A stretch of 32,000 bases of DNA, taken from the NCBI RefSeq assembly GCF_042660085.1, contig NZ_JBHSTI010000008.1, forward strand, positions 1,959,876 through 1,991,875. Direction: 5' to 3'. The notes beneath the pieces are model-generated. The model saw nothing but the letters and a program-made list of their open reading frames with translations, was not told the origin of the DNA and did not search any database. Source of the DNA: Longivirga aurantiaca (lineage in GTDB: Bacteria > Actinomycetota > Actinomycetes > S36-B12 > CAIYMF01). Made by a program: the position numbers and the translations under genes. Positions 17,426-23,543 of this stretch are shown in pieces (the first letter of the stretch is position 1; each line of letters begins with the position of its first letter).

Positions 17426-18361
17426 ATGACGTCGCCCGCCCTGGCCTGCTTCGACGCCGAGTCCGTGCTGGCTCTCGGGTACGCCGCTGCCACGGACGCG
17501 ATCGTGCGCGCGCTGCGCGACGGCCTGGACCCCGCGATCGGGCCCGCACGCAGCAGCGTCGACCTCGCCCATGGGCAGATGCTGCTCATGCCGGCCGAGA
17601 CGACGACCGCCACGGGCATCAAGGTGGTGACGGTCGCCCCCGGCAACCCGGCGCGCGGCCTCCCCCTGGTGCACGCGCAGTACCTGCTCTTCGACCGCGC
17701 GACGCTCGTGCCGACCGCCGTTCTCGACGGCACCGCGCTGACCACGCTCCGCACCCCGGCCGTCTCGGTGGCCTCCGTGCTCCACCAGCTCCCCGACCGG
17801 CCGTTGCACGTGGCTGTGATCGGGCACGGCCCGCAGGCCCAGGGTCATGTCGCGGCGTTCGAGGCGGTCCGGCCGCTCGCGGGAGCGACGTACCTCGTGC
17901 GCGATCCCGCCCGCGCGTCGGTCGAGGGTGTGGCGCTCGGCAGCGCCGATGCCCGCCGACGCCTGCGCGAGGCCGATGTCGTCGTGTGCGCGACCAGCGC
18001 GCGCATCCCGGTGCTGCGCAGCGAGGACGTGCGCGACGACGCGATCGTCGTCGCGGTCGGGGCGTACGAGCCGGACGCCCGCGAGCTCGACGGCGCGCTG
18101 CTCGGCAGGTCGAGCGTCGTGGTCGAGGACGTGGCGACGGCCCTGCGCGAGGCCGGCGACGTCGTGCTCGCGGTCGCCGAGGGCGCGCTGGACGCAGCCA
18201 CCCTCGTGAGCATGCGCGACCTCGTGCTCGGCACGATCTCCCCGCCTCGCGACAGGCCGCTCGTGGTCAAGACGGTCGGCATGGCGTGGGAGGACCTCGC
18301 CGTCGCGGAGGCCGTGGTCGCACGCGACGGGCGTCGCCCCGGCACGGGCGCGGCGGAGTAA
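17426..18361 (+). CDS. Ornithine cyclodeaminase / mu-crystallin family protein
   Basis: 311 aa. It has GIKVVTVAPGNP, LTTLRTPAVS, a Rossmann-like VAVIGHGPQAQGH and VVAVGAY. GAGGAGG lies upstream of the ATG. Confidence 0.8.
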   Translation: MTSPALACFDAESVLALGYAAATDAIVRALRDGLDPAIGPARSSVDLAHGQMLLMPAETTTATGIKVVTVAPGNPARGLPLVHAQYLLFDRATLVPTAVLDGTALTTLRTPAVSVASVLHQLPDRPLHVAVIGHGPQAQGHVAAFEAVRPLAGATYLVRDPARASVEGVALGSADARRRLREADVVVCATSARIPVLRSEDVRDDAIVVAVGAYEPDARELDGALLGRSSVVVEDVATALREAGDVVLAVAEGALDAATLVSMRDLVLGTISPPRDRPLVVKTVGMAWEDLAVAEAVVARDGRRPGTGAAE

Positions 18362-18376
18362 TACCCCCCAGGGTGT
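18361..18376. promoter_or_regulatory. Imperfect palindrome ATACCCC-CCA-GGGTGT, second copy of the CsoR/CstR-like operator motif
   Basis: It overlaps the OCD-family stop codon and lies 59 bp upstream of the malic-enzyme GTG. 13 of 16 positions are identical to the palindrome at 20197-20212. Confidence 0.35.
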
Positions 18377-18434: not shown

Positions 18435-20162
18435 GTGACCACGCGAACCGAGCCCGAGCACGTCATCCGCTGGAACTCCGACTCCGACGCGTGGGAGACC
18501 ACGCTGCGCGGACGCGCGGTCCTGGCCGAGCCACGGCTCAACAAGGGCACGGCGTTCAGCACCGAGGAGCGCGAGCGGCTCGGACTCGTCGGCCTGCTGC
18601 CGCCGCGTGTGCTCACCCTCGACCAGCAGGAGAGCCGCGCCTACCGGCAGTACCTCGACCAGCCCACCGACCTCGCGAAGAACGTCTTCCTCACGGCGCT
18701 GCACGACCGCAACGAGGTGCTGTTCTTCCGCCTGCTCGGCCGGCACCTGCCCGAGATGCTGCCGATCGTCTACACGCCCACGGTCGGCGAGGCGATCCAG
18801 CGCTACAGCCACGAGTACCGCCGCCCGCGCGGCGTCTACCTCTCGGTCGAGGACCCGCACAGCATGGAGGACGCGCTGCTCGCGACCGGTCGCGCGCCCG
18901 ACGACGTCGACCTCATCATCGCCACCGACGCCGAGGGCATCCTCGGCATCGGCGACTGGGGCGTCGGCGGTATCGAGATCGCGGTCGGCAAGCTCAACGT
19001 CTACACCGCGGCGGCCGGCATCAATCCCGCGCGCACCCTCGCCGTGATGCTCGACGTCGGCACCGACCGGCAGGAGCTGCTCGACGACCCGCTCTACCTC
19101 GGGGTCGCCAAGCCGCGCATCGGCCGCGAGGAGTACGACGCCTTCATCGACCGCTACGTCACCGCGGCTAAAGCGCTCTTCCCCCACGCGATCCTGCACT
19201 GGGAGGACTTCGGCACGTCCAACGCGCGCCGCATCCTCGACCGCTACCGCGACGAGGCCCTCACGTTCAACGACGACATGCAGGGCACCGGCGCGGTCAG
19301 CCTCGCGGCCGTCCTGTCCGCGAGCGACGTCAGCGGCGTGCCGCTGTCGGAGCACCGCGTCGTCGTCTACGGCTCCGGAACCGCGGGCATCGGCATCGCC
19401 GACCAGATCCGCGACGCGATGGTCGTCGCCGGTGTGCCGAAGGACGTCGCCACCCGCCAGTTCTGGTGCGTCGGACGGCACGGCCTGCTCACCGACGCCC
19501 GACCCGACCTGCGCGACTTCCAGGAGCCGTTCGCCCGGCCCGTCGCCGAGGTGGCCGGCTGGGACGTCGACGCCGAGTACGGCGGCGCCAGCCTCGCCGA
19601 GGTCGTACGCCGGGTGCAGCCCACGATCCTCATCGGCACGTCCGGGCGTCCGCAGGCCTTCACCGAGGACGTCGTCCGCGAGATGGCCGCGCACGTCGAG
19701 CGGCCGATCATCATGCCGATGTCGAACCCGACGGTCCTCGCCGAGGCGTTCCCCGCCGACCTGCTCGCCTGGACCGACGGCCGCGCGCTGGTCGCGAGCG
19801 GCAGCCCCTTCCCGCCCGTGACGTACGCCGGCACCACGTACGAGATCGCGCAGGTCAACAACGCGCTCGTCTTCCCCGGTCTCGGGCTCGGCGTGATCGT
19901 CGCCCGCGCCGCCCGCATCACCGACGGCATGCTGCTCGCAGCCGCCGAGGCCGTGGCGGGGAAGGCCGACGCCCACGGACCCGGCGCGTCGCTCCTCCCC
20001 CGTGTCGCCGACCTGCGTGCCACCTCAGCCGTCGTCGCTGCAGCGGTCGCACGCGCGGCGAAGGCGGACGGCGTCGCGACGGCACCGGTCGACGACAGCC
20101 TCGACGCGGCTATCGATCGGGCGATGTGGCGCTGCGCCTACCACCCGGTGCACGCCGTCTGA
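18435..20162 (+). CDS. NAD(P)-dependent malic enzyme (large, oxaloacetate-decarboxylating type)
   Basis: 575 aa. It has LNKGTAFSTEERERLGLVGLLPP, VYTPTVGEA, ATDAEGILGIGD, FNDDMQGTGAV, VVYGSGTAGIGIA and NNALVFPGLGLG. TACGGT lies 7 nt upstream of the GTG, which suggests a leaderless transcript. Confidence 0.92.
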   Translation: MTTRTEPEHVIRWNSDSDAWETTLRGRAVLAEPRLNKGTAFSTEERERLGLVGLLPPRVLTLDQQESRAYRQYLDQPTDLAKNVFLTALHDRNEVLFFRLLGRHLPEMLPIVYTPTVGEAIQRYSHEYRRPRGVYLSVEDPHSMEDALLATGRAPDDVDLIIATDAEGILGIGDWGVGGIEIAVGKLNVYTAAAGINPARTLAVMLDVGTDRQELLDDPLYLGVAKPRIGREEYDAFIDRYVTAAKALFPHAILHWEDFGTSNARRILDRYRDEALTFNDDMQGTGAVSLAAVLSASDVSGVPLSEHRVVVYGSGTAGIGIADQIRDAMVVAGVPKDVATRQFWCVGRHGLLTDARPDLRDFQEPFARPVAEVAGWDVDAEYGGASLAEVVRRVQPTILIGTSGRPQAFTEDVVREMAAHVERPIIMPMSNPTVLAEAFPADLLAWTDGRALVASGSPFPPVTYAGTTYEIAQVNNALVFPGLGLGVIVARAARITDGMLLAAAEAVAGKADAHGPGASLLPRVADLRATSAVVAAAVARAAKADGVATAPVDDSLDAAIDRAMWRCAYHPVHAV

Positions 20163-20195
20163 CCGCGCCGGACGCCCCAGGAGTGGCGTGGGGAA

Positions 20196-20213
20196 TATAC
20201 CCCGGGGGGTATA
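20196..20213. promoter_or_regulatory. Palindromic operator candidate TATACCCC-GG-GGGGTATA, overlapping a TATAGT -10-like hexamer of the thioredoxin operon
   Basis: 8-bp perfect arms. It is the only AT-containing palindrome of this kind in the window besides 18361-18376. TATAGT is at 20210-20215, 42 nt upstream of the trx ATG. The form resembles CsoR/RicR/CstR-family operators (TACCC...GGGTA). Confidence 0.5.
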
Positions 20214-20256
20214 GTGTTCAGCAGGGCGGAGACCACGACACCCCTGGAGGACCACC

Positions 20257-20625
20257 ATGGCCACCCTGACGCTCACCGGCGACACCTTCGAGCAGACCGT
20301 CACCACCGACGGCATCACGTTCGTCGACTTCTGGGCCTCCTGGTGCGGCCCGTGCCGTGCGTTCGCGCCGATCTTCGAGAAGGCGTCGGAGACGCACCCC
20401 GACATCCGCTTCGGCAAGGTCGATACCGAGGCCGAGCAGTCGCTCGCCGCGGCCGCGCAGATCTCCGCCATCCCCACGCTCATGGCGTTCCGCGACGGCA
20501 TCCTCGTCTACCGCGAGGCAGGCGCCCTGCGCGAGAAGGACTTCGAGCAGCTGATCGCCTCTGTGCGCGACCTCGACATGGACGACATCCGCGCCCGGGT
20601 GGCTGCGGCCAGCGCCTCCGTCTGA
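20257..20625 (+). CDS. Thioredoxin
   Basis: 122 aa with the WASWCGPC active site and the thioredoxin fold pattern (IPTLMAFRDG). GGAGG Shine-Dalgarno. Confidence 0.9.
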   Translation: MATLTLTGDTFEQTVTTDGITFVDFWASWCGPCRAFAPIFEKASETHPDIRFGKVDTEAEQSLAAAAQISAIPTLMAFRDGILVYREAGALREKDFEQLIASVRDLDMDDIRARVAAASASV

Positions 20626-20650
20626 CACACCACACGCACCGGAGAGCCTC

Positions 20651-21055
20651 GTGAAGAACCCGCTCCGCCTCCTCGTCCTCGCCGTCGTCGCCCTCGTGGG
20701 CGCGCTCGTCCTCACCAGCTGCGGCGCCGGCAGCAGCGTCACCACGGTCGGCGCCCAGGACTTCCTCACCAAGACCGCCGAGCCCGGCGTGGTGGTGGTC
20801 GACGTCCGTACGGCGGCCGAGTTCGCCGAGGGCCACGTCGACGGCGCGATCAACGTCGACGTCGAGGCACCGACGTTCGACGCGCAGATCGCGCAGCTCG
20901 ACAAGGCCACGACGTACGCCGTCTACTGCCGCACCGGTCGGCGCTCGGGCCTCGCGACCGACGCCCTGGGCGAGGCCGGCTTCACCAGCGTCGTGAACCT
21001 CGACGGCGGCATCGCCGACCTCCAGGCTGCCGGCGCACCGATCGTGGCCGGGTAG
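20651..21055 (+). CDS. Rhodanese-domain lipoprotein (extracytoplasmic sulfurtransferase-like)
   Basis: 134 aa. Signal peptide with lipobox LVLTSC, and a rhodanese active-site loop YCRTGRRSG. GGAGAG lies upstream of the GTG. Confidence 0.85.
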   Translation: MKNPLRLLVLAVVALVGALVLTSCGAGSSVTTVGAQDFLTKTAEPGVVVVDVRTAAEFAEGHVDGAINVDVEAPTFDAQIAQLDKATTYAVYCRTGRRSGLATDALGEAGFTSVVNLDGGIADLQAAGAPIVAG

Positions 21056-21064
21056 CGTCCCCGC

Positions 21065-21547
21065 ATGCCGTTCGACCGCACCGCCTGGTCCGCGCTCGCC
21101 CAGTGGCCCCGACGCCGCTGGGCGGCCGCGGGCCTCGCGGCGATCAGCACCGTCCTCCTCGTCGGCATCCCGACGGTGCTCGTGCCGACGCCGGTCTTCG
21201 GACGCGAGGTGCCGGTGACGGGGTGGGCCTGGCCCGCGCTCATCGTGACGTCGGTACTCGCCGGTCTCGTGGCCGCGACGTACGTCCGCACCGGGGCGCC
21301 GTCCGCGGGCGACGACGTCAGCCGTGCGGGACTGGTGGGCGGGTTCCTCACCTACCTCGCCGTCGGCTGCCCCGTCTGCAACAAGATCGCGCTGCTGGCC
21401 CTCGGCTACACCGGTGTGCTCCAGTGGTTCGCACCCGTGCAGCCGTTCCTCGCCGTGGCCGGCATCGCACTGCTCGCGTACGCCCTGCGGCGCCGCCTCG
21501 AGGGCGAGCGGTCCTGCCCGGTCCCGGACCGCACGCCCGTCGCATGA
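21065..21547 (+). CDS. Four-TM membrane protein with an intramembrane CPVC motif, family not recognised
   Basis: 160 aa with four predicted TM helices. GCPVCNK sits in the third helix, and there is an additional C-terminal SCPVP. Confidence 0.65.
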   Translation: MPFDRTAWSALAQWPRRRWAAAGLAAISTVLLVGIPTVLVPTPVFGREVPVTGWAWPALIVTSVLAGLVAATYVRTGAPSAGDDVSRAGLVGGFLTYLAVGCPVCNKIALLALGYTGVLQWFAPVQPFLAVAGIALLAYALRRRLEGERSCPVPDRTPVA

Positions 21548-21897
21548 GCCCCGCCTCGGGCGCCGTGCTCGACTCCCTTCTCGAGGAGGCGGCGACCGCC
21601 CTCGGCTGCCTCGCGGGCGGCGCCGCCGTCTGCGCCTTCAGCCGTGCGGGCGTGCCCGTCCCGGGCATCACGTACGCCGAGGGCCGCTGGGCGGCGCTCC
21701 GCGACGTGCAGCGCGCGACGTCCTACGGAGCCGCCGTCGAGACCGCGTCGGCTGCCGCGCTCGTCACCTGGGAGGCGGAGCTCGAGTCGGCCGTCGCCCG
21801 CGGCGCGGGTTGCGACTGGGTGGCCTACCGGACCGGTGGCGTCGATGCGCTCGGTGCGCTGCTCGACCGACCGGCATCGGCACGGCCTTCTGGTTGA
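21544..21897 (+). CDS. Cys-containing hypothetical protein, translationally coupled to the CPVC membrane protein
   Basis: 117 aa. ATGA start/stop overlap at 21544-21547. High GC3. No recognisable domain. Confidence 0.5.
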   Translation: MSPASGAVLDSLLEEAATALGCLAGGAAVCAFSRAGVPVPGITYAEGRWAALRDVQRATSYGAAVETASAAALVTWEAELESAVARGAGCDWVAYRTGGVDALGALLDRPASARPSG

Positions 21898-21930
21898 GCG
21901 GGTGCCTGGGGCATTGCCCTGCAACACCCC

Positions 21931-21947
21931 GCCTGCTGTGGGCAGGC
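21931..21947 (+). terminator. Weak hairpin after the thioredoxin-rhodanese operon
   Basis: GCCTGC-tgtgg-GCAGGC followed by TGTT. Confidence 0.25.
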
Positions 21948-21980
21948 TGTTCCCCAGCACACCCACACCAGGAGGAACCC

Positions 21981-22172
21981 ATGTTCGGGATCGGCGGCTT
22001 CAGCGGCGGCAGCAAGAACGGCGAGCACTACGACATCGAGGTCAACGAGGGCTCGGTGAACATGAAGCGGTTCAGCGCCGTGGCCAACGAGCGGCACTCG
22101 AACGGCTACCGCATGGCGCACGTGTTCATGCAGGAGGGCAACACCATCGTCGTGTGGGAGAAGGTCGGCTGA
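21981..22172 (+). CDS. Small conserved-looking hypothetical protein (63 aa)
   Basis: Perfect AGGAGG 6 nt upstream of the ATG. Essentially all third positions are G/C. Gly-rich N-terminus, then ...NERHSNGYRMAHVFMQEGNTIVVWEKVG, which is vaguely DUF4177-like. I cannot confirm that resemblance. Confidence 0.7.
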   Translation: MFGIGGFSGGSKNGEHYDIEVNEGSVNMKRFSAVANERHSNGYRMAHVFMQEGNTIVVWEKVG

Positions 22173-22199
22173 GCCGCCCGGCGCCGCGGCGCGGGCGAA

Positions 22200-23543
22200 G
22201 TGCCCGCGCCGCGCGATGATGGTGCGGTGGAGCGCATCAGCGGAAGGGCCTGGATCATCTGGGCCGTCGCTGTCGGCGCCTACACCGTGGCCGTGCTCCA
22301 GCGCACCTCGCTCTCGGTCGCGGGGCTCGACGCCGCCGCGCGCCTCGAGGTGTCCGCGGGGGTCCTCGGCACGTTCGCCGTCGTCCAGCTCCTCGTGTAC
22401 GCCGGCATGCAGGTGCCGGTCGGCGTCATGGTCGATCGGGTCGGCCCGCGCGTGCTGGTCGTCACCGGTGCCGTCCTCATGGCGCTCGGCCAGGTGAGCC
22501 TGGCGCTCGCGCAGTCGTTCCCCGCGGCGCTCGCCGCACGGATCCTCGTCGGCGCCGGCGACGCCATGACGTTCATCGCGGTGCTGCGCCTCGTCACCGC
22601 GTGGTTCCCGCCCCGGCGCGTGCCGCTCATGACGCAGGTGACCGGTCTCGTCGGCCAGTCCGGCCAGCTCCTCAGCATCATCCCGCTCGCCGCCCTGCTC
22701 CACGGCCCCGGGTGGACGCCCGCCTTCCTGTCGGCCGCGTCGCTGTCGGTGCTGTTCGCCGTCCTCGCCTTCGCGGTCGTCCGCGACACCCCCACGGGCA
22801 ACCGCACCGACGAGGCCTCGCCCTCCTGGTCGCAGGTGAGGCACGACCTCGTCTCCGCGTGGCGGCATCCGGGCACGCGCCTCGGGCTCTGGACGCACTT
22901 CACGACGCCGTTCGCGAGCGTGGCGTTCCTGCTGCTGTGGGGCTACCCCTTCCTCGTGTCGGCGCAAGGGATGAGCCGCGGCGAGGCGAGCGTGCTGTTC
23001 TCGGTCATGACCGTCGTCGGGCTCGTCGCGGCACCGTTCCTCGGCGAGGCGGTGGCCCGGCACCCGCTGCGACGTTCCTGGATCGTCCTCACGATCGTGG
23101 GCTCCACGATCGTCGTGTGGACCGCCGTGCTGGTGCTTCCCGATCCCGCTCCCCGGTGGCTCCTGCTGCTCCTCGTCGTCGTCCTCGCGGTCGGCGGCCC
23201 GGCGTCGATGATCGGTTTCGACTTCGCGCGCACGTTCAACCCTCCCAACCGGATCGGGACGGCGACCGGCATCGTCAACGTCGGCGGCTTCTTCTCCGGG
23301 CTCGTCCTCATCCTGGCCGTGGGCGTCCTGCTCGACCTGACGGGCAGCGGCGAGTCGTACTCGCTCGAGGGCTTCCGGATCGCCTTCTCCGCGCAGTACG
23401 TGATCTGGGCGATCGGCATCGCGGGCATCCTGCGCACCCGGCGCATCCTCCGGGCCCGGCTGGCCGCCGACGGCGTGGTCGTGCCGCCGATGCGCGACGT
23501 GGTGCGACGGCGCCGAGCGGCCCGGCGCGGCACGCCGCGCTGA
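22200..23543 (+). CDS. MFS transporter
   Basis: 447 aa with about 12 TM helices and the MFS signature-like GVMVDRVGPRVLVV between TM2 and TM3. The start (GTG 22200 or 22227) is uncertain. Confidence 0.85.
   Translation: MPAPRDDGAVERISGRAWIIWAVAVGAYTVAVLQRTSLSVAGLDAAARLEVSAGVLGTFAVVQLLVYAGMQVPVGVMVDRVGPRVLVVTGAVLMALGQVSLALAQSFPAALAARILVGAGDAMTFIAVLRLVTAWFPPRRVPLMTQVTGLVGQSGQLLSIIPLAALLHGPGWTPAFLSAASLSVLFAVLAFAVVRDTPTGNRTDEASPSWSQVRHDLVSAWRHPGTRLGLWTHFTTPFASVAFLLLWGYPFLVSAQGMSRGEASVLFSVMTVVGLVAAPFLGEAVARHPLRRSWIVLTIVGSTIVVWTAVLVLPDPAPRWLLLLLVVVLAVGGPASMIGFDFARTFNPPNRIGTATGIVNVGGFFSGLVLILAVGVLLDLTGSGESYSLEGFRIAFSAQYVIWAIGIAGILRTRRILRARLAADGVVVPPMRDVVRRRRAARRGTPR

Follow-up and report, generated by a model that had tools for sequence, protein, structure and literature searches.

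The locus described here lies within a stretch of 32,000 nucleotides (nt) from Longivirga aurantiaca (contig NZ_JBHSTI010000008.1, positions 1,959,876 to 1,991,875), which we refer to as the window. It consists of an inverted repeat (20196-20213) and four co-directional genes on the forward strand, which begin 42 nt downstream of the repeat. The first gene, trx (20257-20625), encodes a thioredoxin of 122 amino acids (aa), the second (20651-21055, GTG start) a lipoprotein rhodanese of 134 aa, the third (21065-21547) a membrane protein of 160 aa, and the fourth (21544-21897) a cysteine-containing protein of 117 aa. The genes are tightly packed, with 25 nt between trx and the rhodanese gene, 9 nt between the rhodanese and membrane genes, and an ATGA in which the stop of the membrane gene overlaps the start of the last gene. 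A first-pass annotation, made from the letters alone, had proposed a thiol or sulfur relay across the cell envelope, controlled by a repressor of the CsoR family. The packing on which it relied is present in the sequence, as are the WCGPC of the thioredoxin, the lipobox LTSC and the loop CRTGRRS of the rhodanese, and the SCPVP near the end of the membrane protein.

The inverted repeat has an 8+2+8 layout, TATACCCC-GG-GGGGTATA, and in sequence takes the TAC-N8-GTA form of a CstR-type operator. It had been called a perfect palindrome, which is true of the 8-nt arms, as these are perfectly complementary, and not of the GG centre. The overlap with TATAGT also stands: the right arm forms this candidate -10 element (20210-20215, forward strand), and the same hexamer follows the operator of cstR1 in the same genome. 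Scans of positions 20100-22300 returned neither a full sigma-70 consensus promoter nor a predicted terminator, so both the promoter and the end of the operon can only be inferred. An open reading frame (ORF) of 63 aa with a strong Shine-Dalgarno sequence (21983-22171) lies 85 nt past the operon. It matches no Pfam or NCBIfam family, and it might share the operon transcript, as no terminator is predicted in between.

Three genes of the CsoR family (PF02583) were found in the genome and, in agreement with the first-pass annotation, none in the window. The gene on contig 18 has the C-H-C of copper-type CsoR proteins and stands ahead of copZ and copA. Both genes on contig 8 are of the CstR type, x-C-x-C, with Ser or Gly at the position of the copper-ligating His. 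This x-C-x-C signature marks persulfide-sensing CstR proteins (Fakhoury et al., PMC8643695), of which those of actinomycetes, 'cluster 3', have for the most part not been characterised (PMC8643695).

A scan of the 3.67 Mb genome for ATACCC-N4-GGGTAT (that is, TAC-N8-GTA) with at least 11 of 12 matches gave eight N8 sites, compared with zero in the reversed-sequence control, so the palindrome is not a chance occurrence. Perfect or near-perfect sites precede cstR1, a gene for a sulfide:quinone oxidoreductase (SQR), and the present operon. Others lie upstream of a persulfide dioxygenase (PDO)-rhodanese fusion with TauE, of a CoA-disulfide-reductase-rhodanese (CoADR-rhodanese) fusion with cstR2 and a rhodanese gene, and of a second SQR gene (SQR2) with a DsrE-like gene. 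Sites with a spacer of nine (TAC-N9-GTA) number only two in the genome, one before csoR-copZ and one before a DUF4396 gene. The published sites divide in the same way. The copper CsoR consensus of Streptomyces lividans is N9 (PMC3902906), and the site of the sulfane-sulfur sensor ScCsoR of S. coelicolor, mapped by electrophoretic mobility shift assay, is ATACC-N6-GGTAT, hence N8 (PMC7533328). The operator of the window agrees with the latter form. Because the N8/N9 split within the genome and the published sites agree, the assignment of the operon to a CstR-type persulfide regulon, and not to a copper regulon, is strongly supported, with the operator as its putative switch. Copper CsoR was considered as the regulator and rejected, since the copper genes use the N9 form.

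Apart from one site inside a coding sequence, the remaining N8 sites all precede sulfur genes, with the exception of one of ambiguous status within the window. This site, ATACCCCCCAGGGTGT (18361-18376, 11 of 12 matches), lies directly past the stop of the upstream gene and 59 nt ahead of the GTG of an NAD-malic enzyme gene (18435-20162). The malic enzyme may be under the same repressor, or the site may be a decayed one. The intragenic match at C8:305355 (11 of 12), within a SIS-domain coding sequence, is probably due to chance. The copper CsoR regulon with the two N9 sites lies outside the window (C8:241082-241653 and C18:966-1340), and one of these sites precedes csoR-copZ-copA. The DUF4396 membrane protein (PF14342, E 1.1e-42) is preceded by an extended palindrome of 35 nt and has a C-terminal HDDHSA repeat and a His-rich tail.

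The same operator recurs in other genomes. Among 80 loci with relatives of the membrane protein (51-88% identity), drawn from contigs representing one genome per species, 79 had enough upstream DNA, and in 61 of these an N8 palindrome (at least 11 of 12 matches) lies within 300 bp upstream of the membrane gene. Of these palindromes 43 are perfect, and the chance expectation, derived from the remainder of the same loci, is 0.012 per locus. No N9 site was found in this upstream interval in any of the 79 loci. The related loci, together with the genome's own regulon, thus strongly support control by a CstR-type protein over control by a copper CsoR, between which the first-pass annotation had left the choice open. 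The four closest loci have the identical four-gene order with the operator ahead of trx. Elsewhere, the commonest order is operator, membrane gene, 117-aa gene, second operator, trx, one to three rhodanese genes and PDO-rhodanese, in which the last rhodanese is a lipoprotein. Other neighbours include SQR, TauE, cstR and a divergent fusion of CoADR, rhodanese, DsrE and TusA. In five loci (L037, L039, L047, L063 and L083) a protein of 823-849 aa, combining pyridine-nucleotide disulfide reductase, rhodanese, DsrE-type and TusA domains, is encoded divergently from the membrane gene and shares the intergenic operator with it.

The product of trx is a cytoplasmic thioredoxin (PF00085, E 3.4e-24; TIGR01068, 98.7 bits with a cut-off of 96.8) without a signal peptide. 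In other genomes, its orthologues (73-91% identity) lead trx-rhodanese-PDO operons behind the same operator. According to two reports, thioredoxins reduce persulfides (PMC6196236, PMC6831875). The rhodanese (PF00581, E 4.1e-19) has a signal peptide, the lipobox and the catalytic six-residue loop CRTGRRS, and is predicted to sit on the outer face of the membrane. Signal peptide and lipobox are kept in all eight of the orthologues examined, and in other genomes the operator directly precedes seven orthologues that stand alone. That thioredoxin and rhodanese fit known persulfide-removal chemistry is well supported. Because orthologues of the rhodanese and homologues of the membrane protein each recur behind the operator, both are, as far as sequence can tell, conserved targets of the N8 operator, and both stand outside the published Streptomyces circuit. 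The lipoprotein rhodanese is also retained in actinobacterial genomes of only 1.3-1.5 Mb (L091; G068, G094, G117 and similar). L091, the only locus fetched from this group, has genes for SQR, CstR, rhodanese, CoADR-rhodanese and thioredoxin on one strand, preceded by a single operator. The membrane gene was not found in these small rhodanese-bearing genomes.

The membrane protein belongs to a large family without a name. It has no Pfam hit at E 0.1 or better and no NCBIfam family, and none of its relatives, 2713 at 90% clustering and 872 clusters at 50% identity, carries a Pfam domain. Its AlphaFold model (pLDDT 80.7) has four helices (16-39, 55-71, 87-101/103-114 and 119-150), of which the third is kinked at the CPVC of residues 102-105, in line with the four helices and the CPVC position read from the sequence earlier. 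The third cysteine, C151, sits in the tail within SCPVP. Near-invariant residues are T37, R47, G67, A99, G101, C102, P103, C105, N106, K107, G114, G117, A118, P124 and P127. All 80 homologues retain GCPVCNK. C151 is kept in 76% of distant members, and of the 80 closer homologues 79 have it at the aligned position, the exception being an apparent frameshift. According to the positive-inside rule both termini would be cytoplasmic, which would place the CPVC within the membrane toward the outer leaflet and C151 in the cytoplasm. Foldseek comparisons of this model and that of the 117-aa protein with the PDB returned noise (best E 1.3 and 1.8, TM score at most 0.47), and profile searches of PDB sequences with the two proteins gave no match. 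In our literature searches we met no description of the family and no CstR regulon with a MerT-like member.

Homology to a known protein is nevertheless detectable in the C-terminal half. Among 120 diverse family members, 29 gave sub-threshold hits to MerT (PF02411; best E 2.3e-5), while any other family was hit by at most five. An hhalign comparison of the family with a MerT alignment, built from the R100 plasmid MerT as reference, gave a probability of 92.8% (E 4e-7, 62 columns), compared with 0.6% for reversed-sequence controls. Residues 90-152 align to MerT 12-77, with C102 on MerT C24 and C151 on MerT C76, and the motifs LVLxALGxSGA and P-x-x-P are common to both. Judged from these alignments, the membrane protein combines two additional N-terminal helices with a hairpin that is distantly homologous to that of MerT. 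Functionally it is not a MerT: the protein of the window does not reach the Pfam gathering score for MerT (NCBIfam MerTP, E 0.062), has CPVC-NK in place of CC-LGP, and has a single cysteine in the tail. The first-pass annotation was correct that the protein is not CcdA, DsbD, VKOR or MauE, and it overlooked this homology. As to whether it falls into a well-characterised family, no Pfam, NCBIfam or PDB match places it in one, and the distant kinship with MerT is the only link found. A mercury operon was also considered and rejected: a search of the genome revealed neither a MerA above the cut-off nor a canonical MerT, and mer genes are absent from the families listed for the neighbour proteins.

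The 117-aa protein likewise matches no Pfam or NCBIfam family. Its relatives form 31 clusters, all unnamed, and are thus much rarer than those of the membrane protein. In 22 of the 80 loci its gene follows the membrane gene directly, and it is always found in this position. The AlphaFold model (pLDDT 90.2) of this cytoplasmic protein predicts a four-helix bundle with a beta-hairpin that bears the single invariant cysteine, C30. Given the translational coupling of the two genes, and the one cytoplasmic cysteine of the membrane protein where MerT has two, one may speculate that the 117-aa protein supplies the second thiol.

More distant relatives place the membrane family in a wider thiol context. 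Twenty further loci (39-60% identity) were fetched from a sample of genomes of the class. An N8 operator match (at least 11 of 12) was present in five of them, and a sixth had an N9-type match. In eight, a gene for a DsbA-like protein (CPFC or CPYC) with a membrane anchor adjoins the membrane gene and CcdA comes next, often together with a BlaI-like repressor, an M48 BlaR-like peptidase and CTATG...CATAG palindromes. One locus has a TlpA/AhpC-like protein in place of the DsbA-like one. Another, L118, has the order N8 operator, ArsR-rhodanese fusion, membrane gene, DsbA-like gene and CcdA. One database protein (P0155), a single case, is a fusion of CcdA with the membrane protein. No CcdA gene adjoins the membrane gene among the 93 closest loci. 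Taken over these neighbourhoods, the family's conserved partners are, on the available sequences, a cysteine protein that is exported and a path by which reducing power can come from the cytoplasm. The envelope thiol chemistry that the first-pass annotation had suspected is backed by this DsbA-like, TlpA-like and CcdA context; the particular chain it drew, from thioredoxin through the CPVC protein to the rhodanese, is not.

Some of these loci have features of their own. The ArsR-rhodanese protein (L118:3306-3983) is an ArsR-type helix-turn-helix fused to a rhodanese domain, and the N8 operator lies about 270 bp upstream. In three others (L110, L112 and L113), a divergent dsbA-like-ccdA pair is separated from the membrane gene by tandem palindromes of the type TCTATGCAGCATAGA or GACTATC-N-GATAGTC, with genes for a BlaI-like repressor and an M48 BlaR-like peptidase beside them. 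The arrangement appears to be a second, as yet unstudied regulatory setting for the membrane family.

We propose that the four genes form a CstR-regulated operon, whose MerT-related membrane protein relays between the exported rhodanese and cytoplasmic thiol proteins, and regard the chances of this proposal as about even. In the absence of reactive sulfur, a CstR-type tetramer, formed by either of the x-C-x-C paralogues, would occupy the operator, which also serves as the -10 element. Cross-linking of its two cysteines by persulfide or polysulfide would then release the repressor, as comparative data would suggest. The products would then be a thioredoxin in the cytoplasm, a lipoprotein rhodanese on the outer face, a small membrane protein, and its translationally coupled cytoplasmic partner with one cysteine. 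The membrane protein would offer a MerT-like hairpin with an in-membrane CPVC pair (CC in MerT) and a cytoplasmic cysteine aligned with MerT C76. In the fashion of MerT, a thiophilic group could be handed over from cysteine to cysteine between the rhodanese outside and the thioredoxin and 117-aa protein inside. The cargo could be reducing equivalents, with thiol-disulfide or persulfide exchange resetting the exported enzyme, or sulfane sulfur itself. The regulation and the products are the well-supported steps of this scheme, while the relay and its cargo are what we infer from them. Anionic sulfur species or thiol-disulfide exchange would be favoured over a metal cation, because an invariant Asn-Lys follows the Cys pair and no metal gene lies nearby. 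Going one step further, the CPVC protein may found a new, minimal class of trans-membrane cysteine relays, built on the MerT hairpin and passing sulfane sulfur or reducing equivalents, and not mercury, between thiol enzymes outside (the lipoprotein rhodanese, DsbA-like proteins) and thiol proteins of the cytoplasm, with the second cytoplasmic cysteine supplied by the 117-aa protein. This extension is a tentative one, and we would sooner expect it to fail than to hold.

Several observations weigh against the proposal. The modules are separable, both across the class sample and among the related loci. Distant homologues (39-56% identity) mostly lack the N8 operator and have other palindromes with BlaI/BlaR-like regulators instead, and the value of N8 versus N9 as a discriminator is itself a correlation. 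As CcdA adjoins the family elsewhere, CcdA and not the membrane protein may be the carrier of electrons. Finally, the membrane protein has only three conserved cysteines, and with C151 about eight residues past the membrane, it is not evident how this residue could exchange directly with the CPVC pair.

An alternative explanation is one in which each product counters reactive sulfur alone and the operon is a recent fusion of three regulon modules without any relay. The thioredoxin would clear cytoplasmic persulfides and the rhodanese would treat thiosulfate or polysulfide outside, the membrane protein and its partner being unrelated to either. The modules do stand alone behind their own operators, the rhodanese in the seven loci mentioned above and the membrane gene, with no searched partner gene nearby, in about 45 of 80. 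Furthermore, the usual gene order puts a second operator between the 117-aa gene and the trx-rhodaneses-PDO genes, and streamlined genomes of 1.3-1.5 Mb hold the rhodanese without the membrane gene. The class sample comprised 401 evenly drawn genomes, with rhodaneses counted at E 1e-18 or better and some non-lipoprotein forms included; of these genomes, 36 had the membrane gene, 54 a similar rhodanese and 22 the two together. The rhodanese type is therefore present in 22 of the 36 genomes with the membrane gene versus 32 of the 365 without it, an association that argues against unrelated parts, though related genomes are not independent. The conserved partners, which pair an exported cysteine protein (lipoprotein rhodanese, DsbA-like or TlpA-like) with a path for reducing power from the cytoplasm, and the single CcdA fusion argue in the same direction. 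The first-pass annotation had named co-occurrence of the four genes as a test of their connection. Membrane gene and rhodanese are shared by those 22 genomes, and the four closest loci keep the full order, yet in many genomes the modules stand apart. The four genes are therefore modules of one regulon fused into one operon and not an obligatory four-part machine. That the parts act wholly independently appears unlikely to us, though not implausible.

Two further explanations assign the membrane protein a different chemistry. It could be an oxidase like DsbB or VKOR, with the CPVC near the outer leaflet re-oxidising exported thiol proteins and passing electrons to menaquinone, thereby repairing disulfides attacked by sulfide. 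Its substrates would be DsbA-like proteins, or the sulfenate or persulfide of the rhodanese. DsbA-like neighbours in nine of the 20 distant loci, and the conserved Arg47 and aromatic residues, which cluster on the side predicted to face outward, would suit such an enzyme. It is improbable all the same, as there is no Pfam or fold match to DsbB or VKOR, no second Cys pair borne on a loop (the predicted outer loops are devoid of conserved cysteines), and no explanation for the conserved cytoplasmic cysteine, and since the partners CcdA and thioredoxin belong to reductive pathways. The protein could also be a metal transporter, a MerT relative that takes up or exports a thiophilic metal (Hg, Cu, Ag, Cd or Zn) under a palindrome read by copper CsoR. 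The MerT homology itself speaks for this, CsoR-type palindromes serve copper regulons as well, and an intramembrane Cys-Pro motif resembles the CPx of metal ATPases. We consider it very improbable in view of the operator, which has the N8 of the sulfide-oxidation genes and not the N9 of the copper genes, and of the lack of MerA above the cut-off and of canonical MerT in the genome. Moreover, the 25 most frequent Pfam families of 128 scanned neighbour proteins include no metal-binding family, and the invariant Asn-Lys after the Cys pair, where MerT has Gly-Pro, would disfavour a cation.

The proposed CstR-regulated relay shares traits with several known systems. With MerT/MerP/MerA it has in common the hairpin with a Cys pair in its first helix, LVLxALGxSGA, the P-x-x-P turn, the second helix and the cytoplasmic cysteine, as well as the layout of an exported cysteine protein outside and thiol proteins inside. 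It differs in that the membrane protein has four helices (MerT three), CPVC-NK instead of CC-LGP and one cytoplasmic cysteine instead of two, and in that a persulfide-type operator controls it and merR, merP and merA genes are missing. The combination of a cytoplasmic thioredoxin, membrane cysteines and an exported thiol protein is reminiscent of DsbD/CcdA, and CcdA often adjoins the family and is in one case fused to it. In contrast to DsbD/CcdA (PF02683), to which the membrane protein shows no Pfam hit and no Foldseek match, the CxxC lies in one helix and not as one cysteine in each of two pseudo-symmetric helices. The operon itself is without CcdA. The rhodanese resembles PspE of Escherichia coli, a small single-Cys rhodanese outside the cytoplasm (NCBIfam NF007627, E 2.9e-12, below the cut-off). 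PspE, however, is soluble, periplasmic and part of the phage-shock regulon, whereas the rhodanese of the window is a monoderm lipoprotein behind a CstR-type operator.

The CstR regulons of Staphylococcus aureus and Enterococcus faecalis (cst operons) are like the present one in the persulfide-sensing repressor, the rhodaneses, a PDO or CoA persulfide reductase, and thioredoxin-type persulfide reduction (TrxP/TrxQ, PMC6196236). To our knowledge, the cst operons encode cytoplasmic rhodaneses and have no MerT-like membrane protein. The ScCsoR circuit of S. coelicolor, compared here together with the actinomycete 'cluster 3' group, has an x-C-x-C repressor, the ATACC-N6-GGTAT site, and control of PDO and TauE (PMC7533328, PMC8643695), and the present genome has the same genes behind the same form of operator. 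The published circuit consists of repressor, PDO and TauE, and the thioredoxin, lipoprotein rhodanese, CPVC protein and 117-aa protein lie outside it.

Studies in Streptomyces of the actinomycete CstR branch cover only the repressor, the persulfide dioxygenase and TauE (PMC7533328, PMC8643695). To these, the present locus and its relatives contribute two further conserved members of the regulon, both acting at the membrane or beyond it: a lipoprotein rhodanese that is exported, and an unnamed membrane family with three conserved cysteines. They indicate an extracytoplasmic side of the reactive-sulfur response, which is missing from current models. The homology to MerT provides a concrete, testable mechanism for the membrane family, and its recurrent company of DsbA-like proteins and CcdA ties it to the wider thiol homeostasis of the envelope. 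If the relay on a MerT hairpin proves true, actinobacteria would have an extracytoplasmic arm for dealing with reactive sulfur, and a third solution for trans-membrane thiol chemistry would exist besides DsbD/CcdA and DsbB/VKOR.

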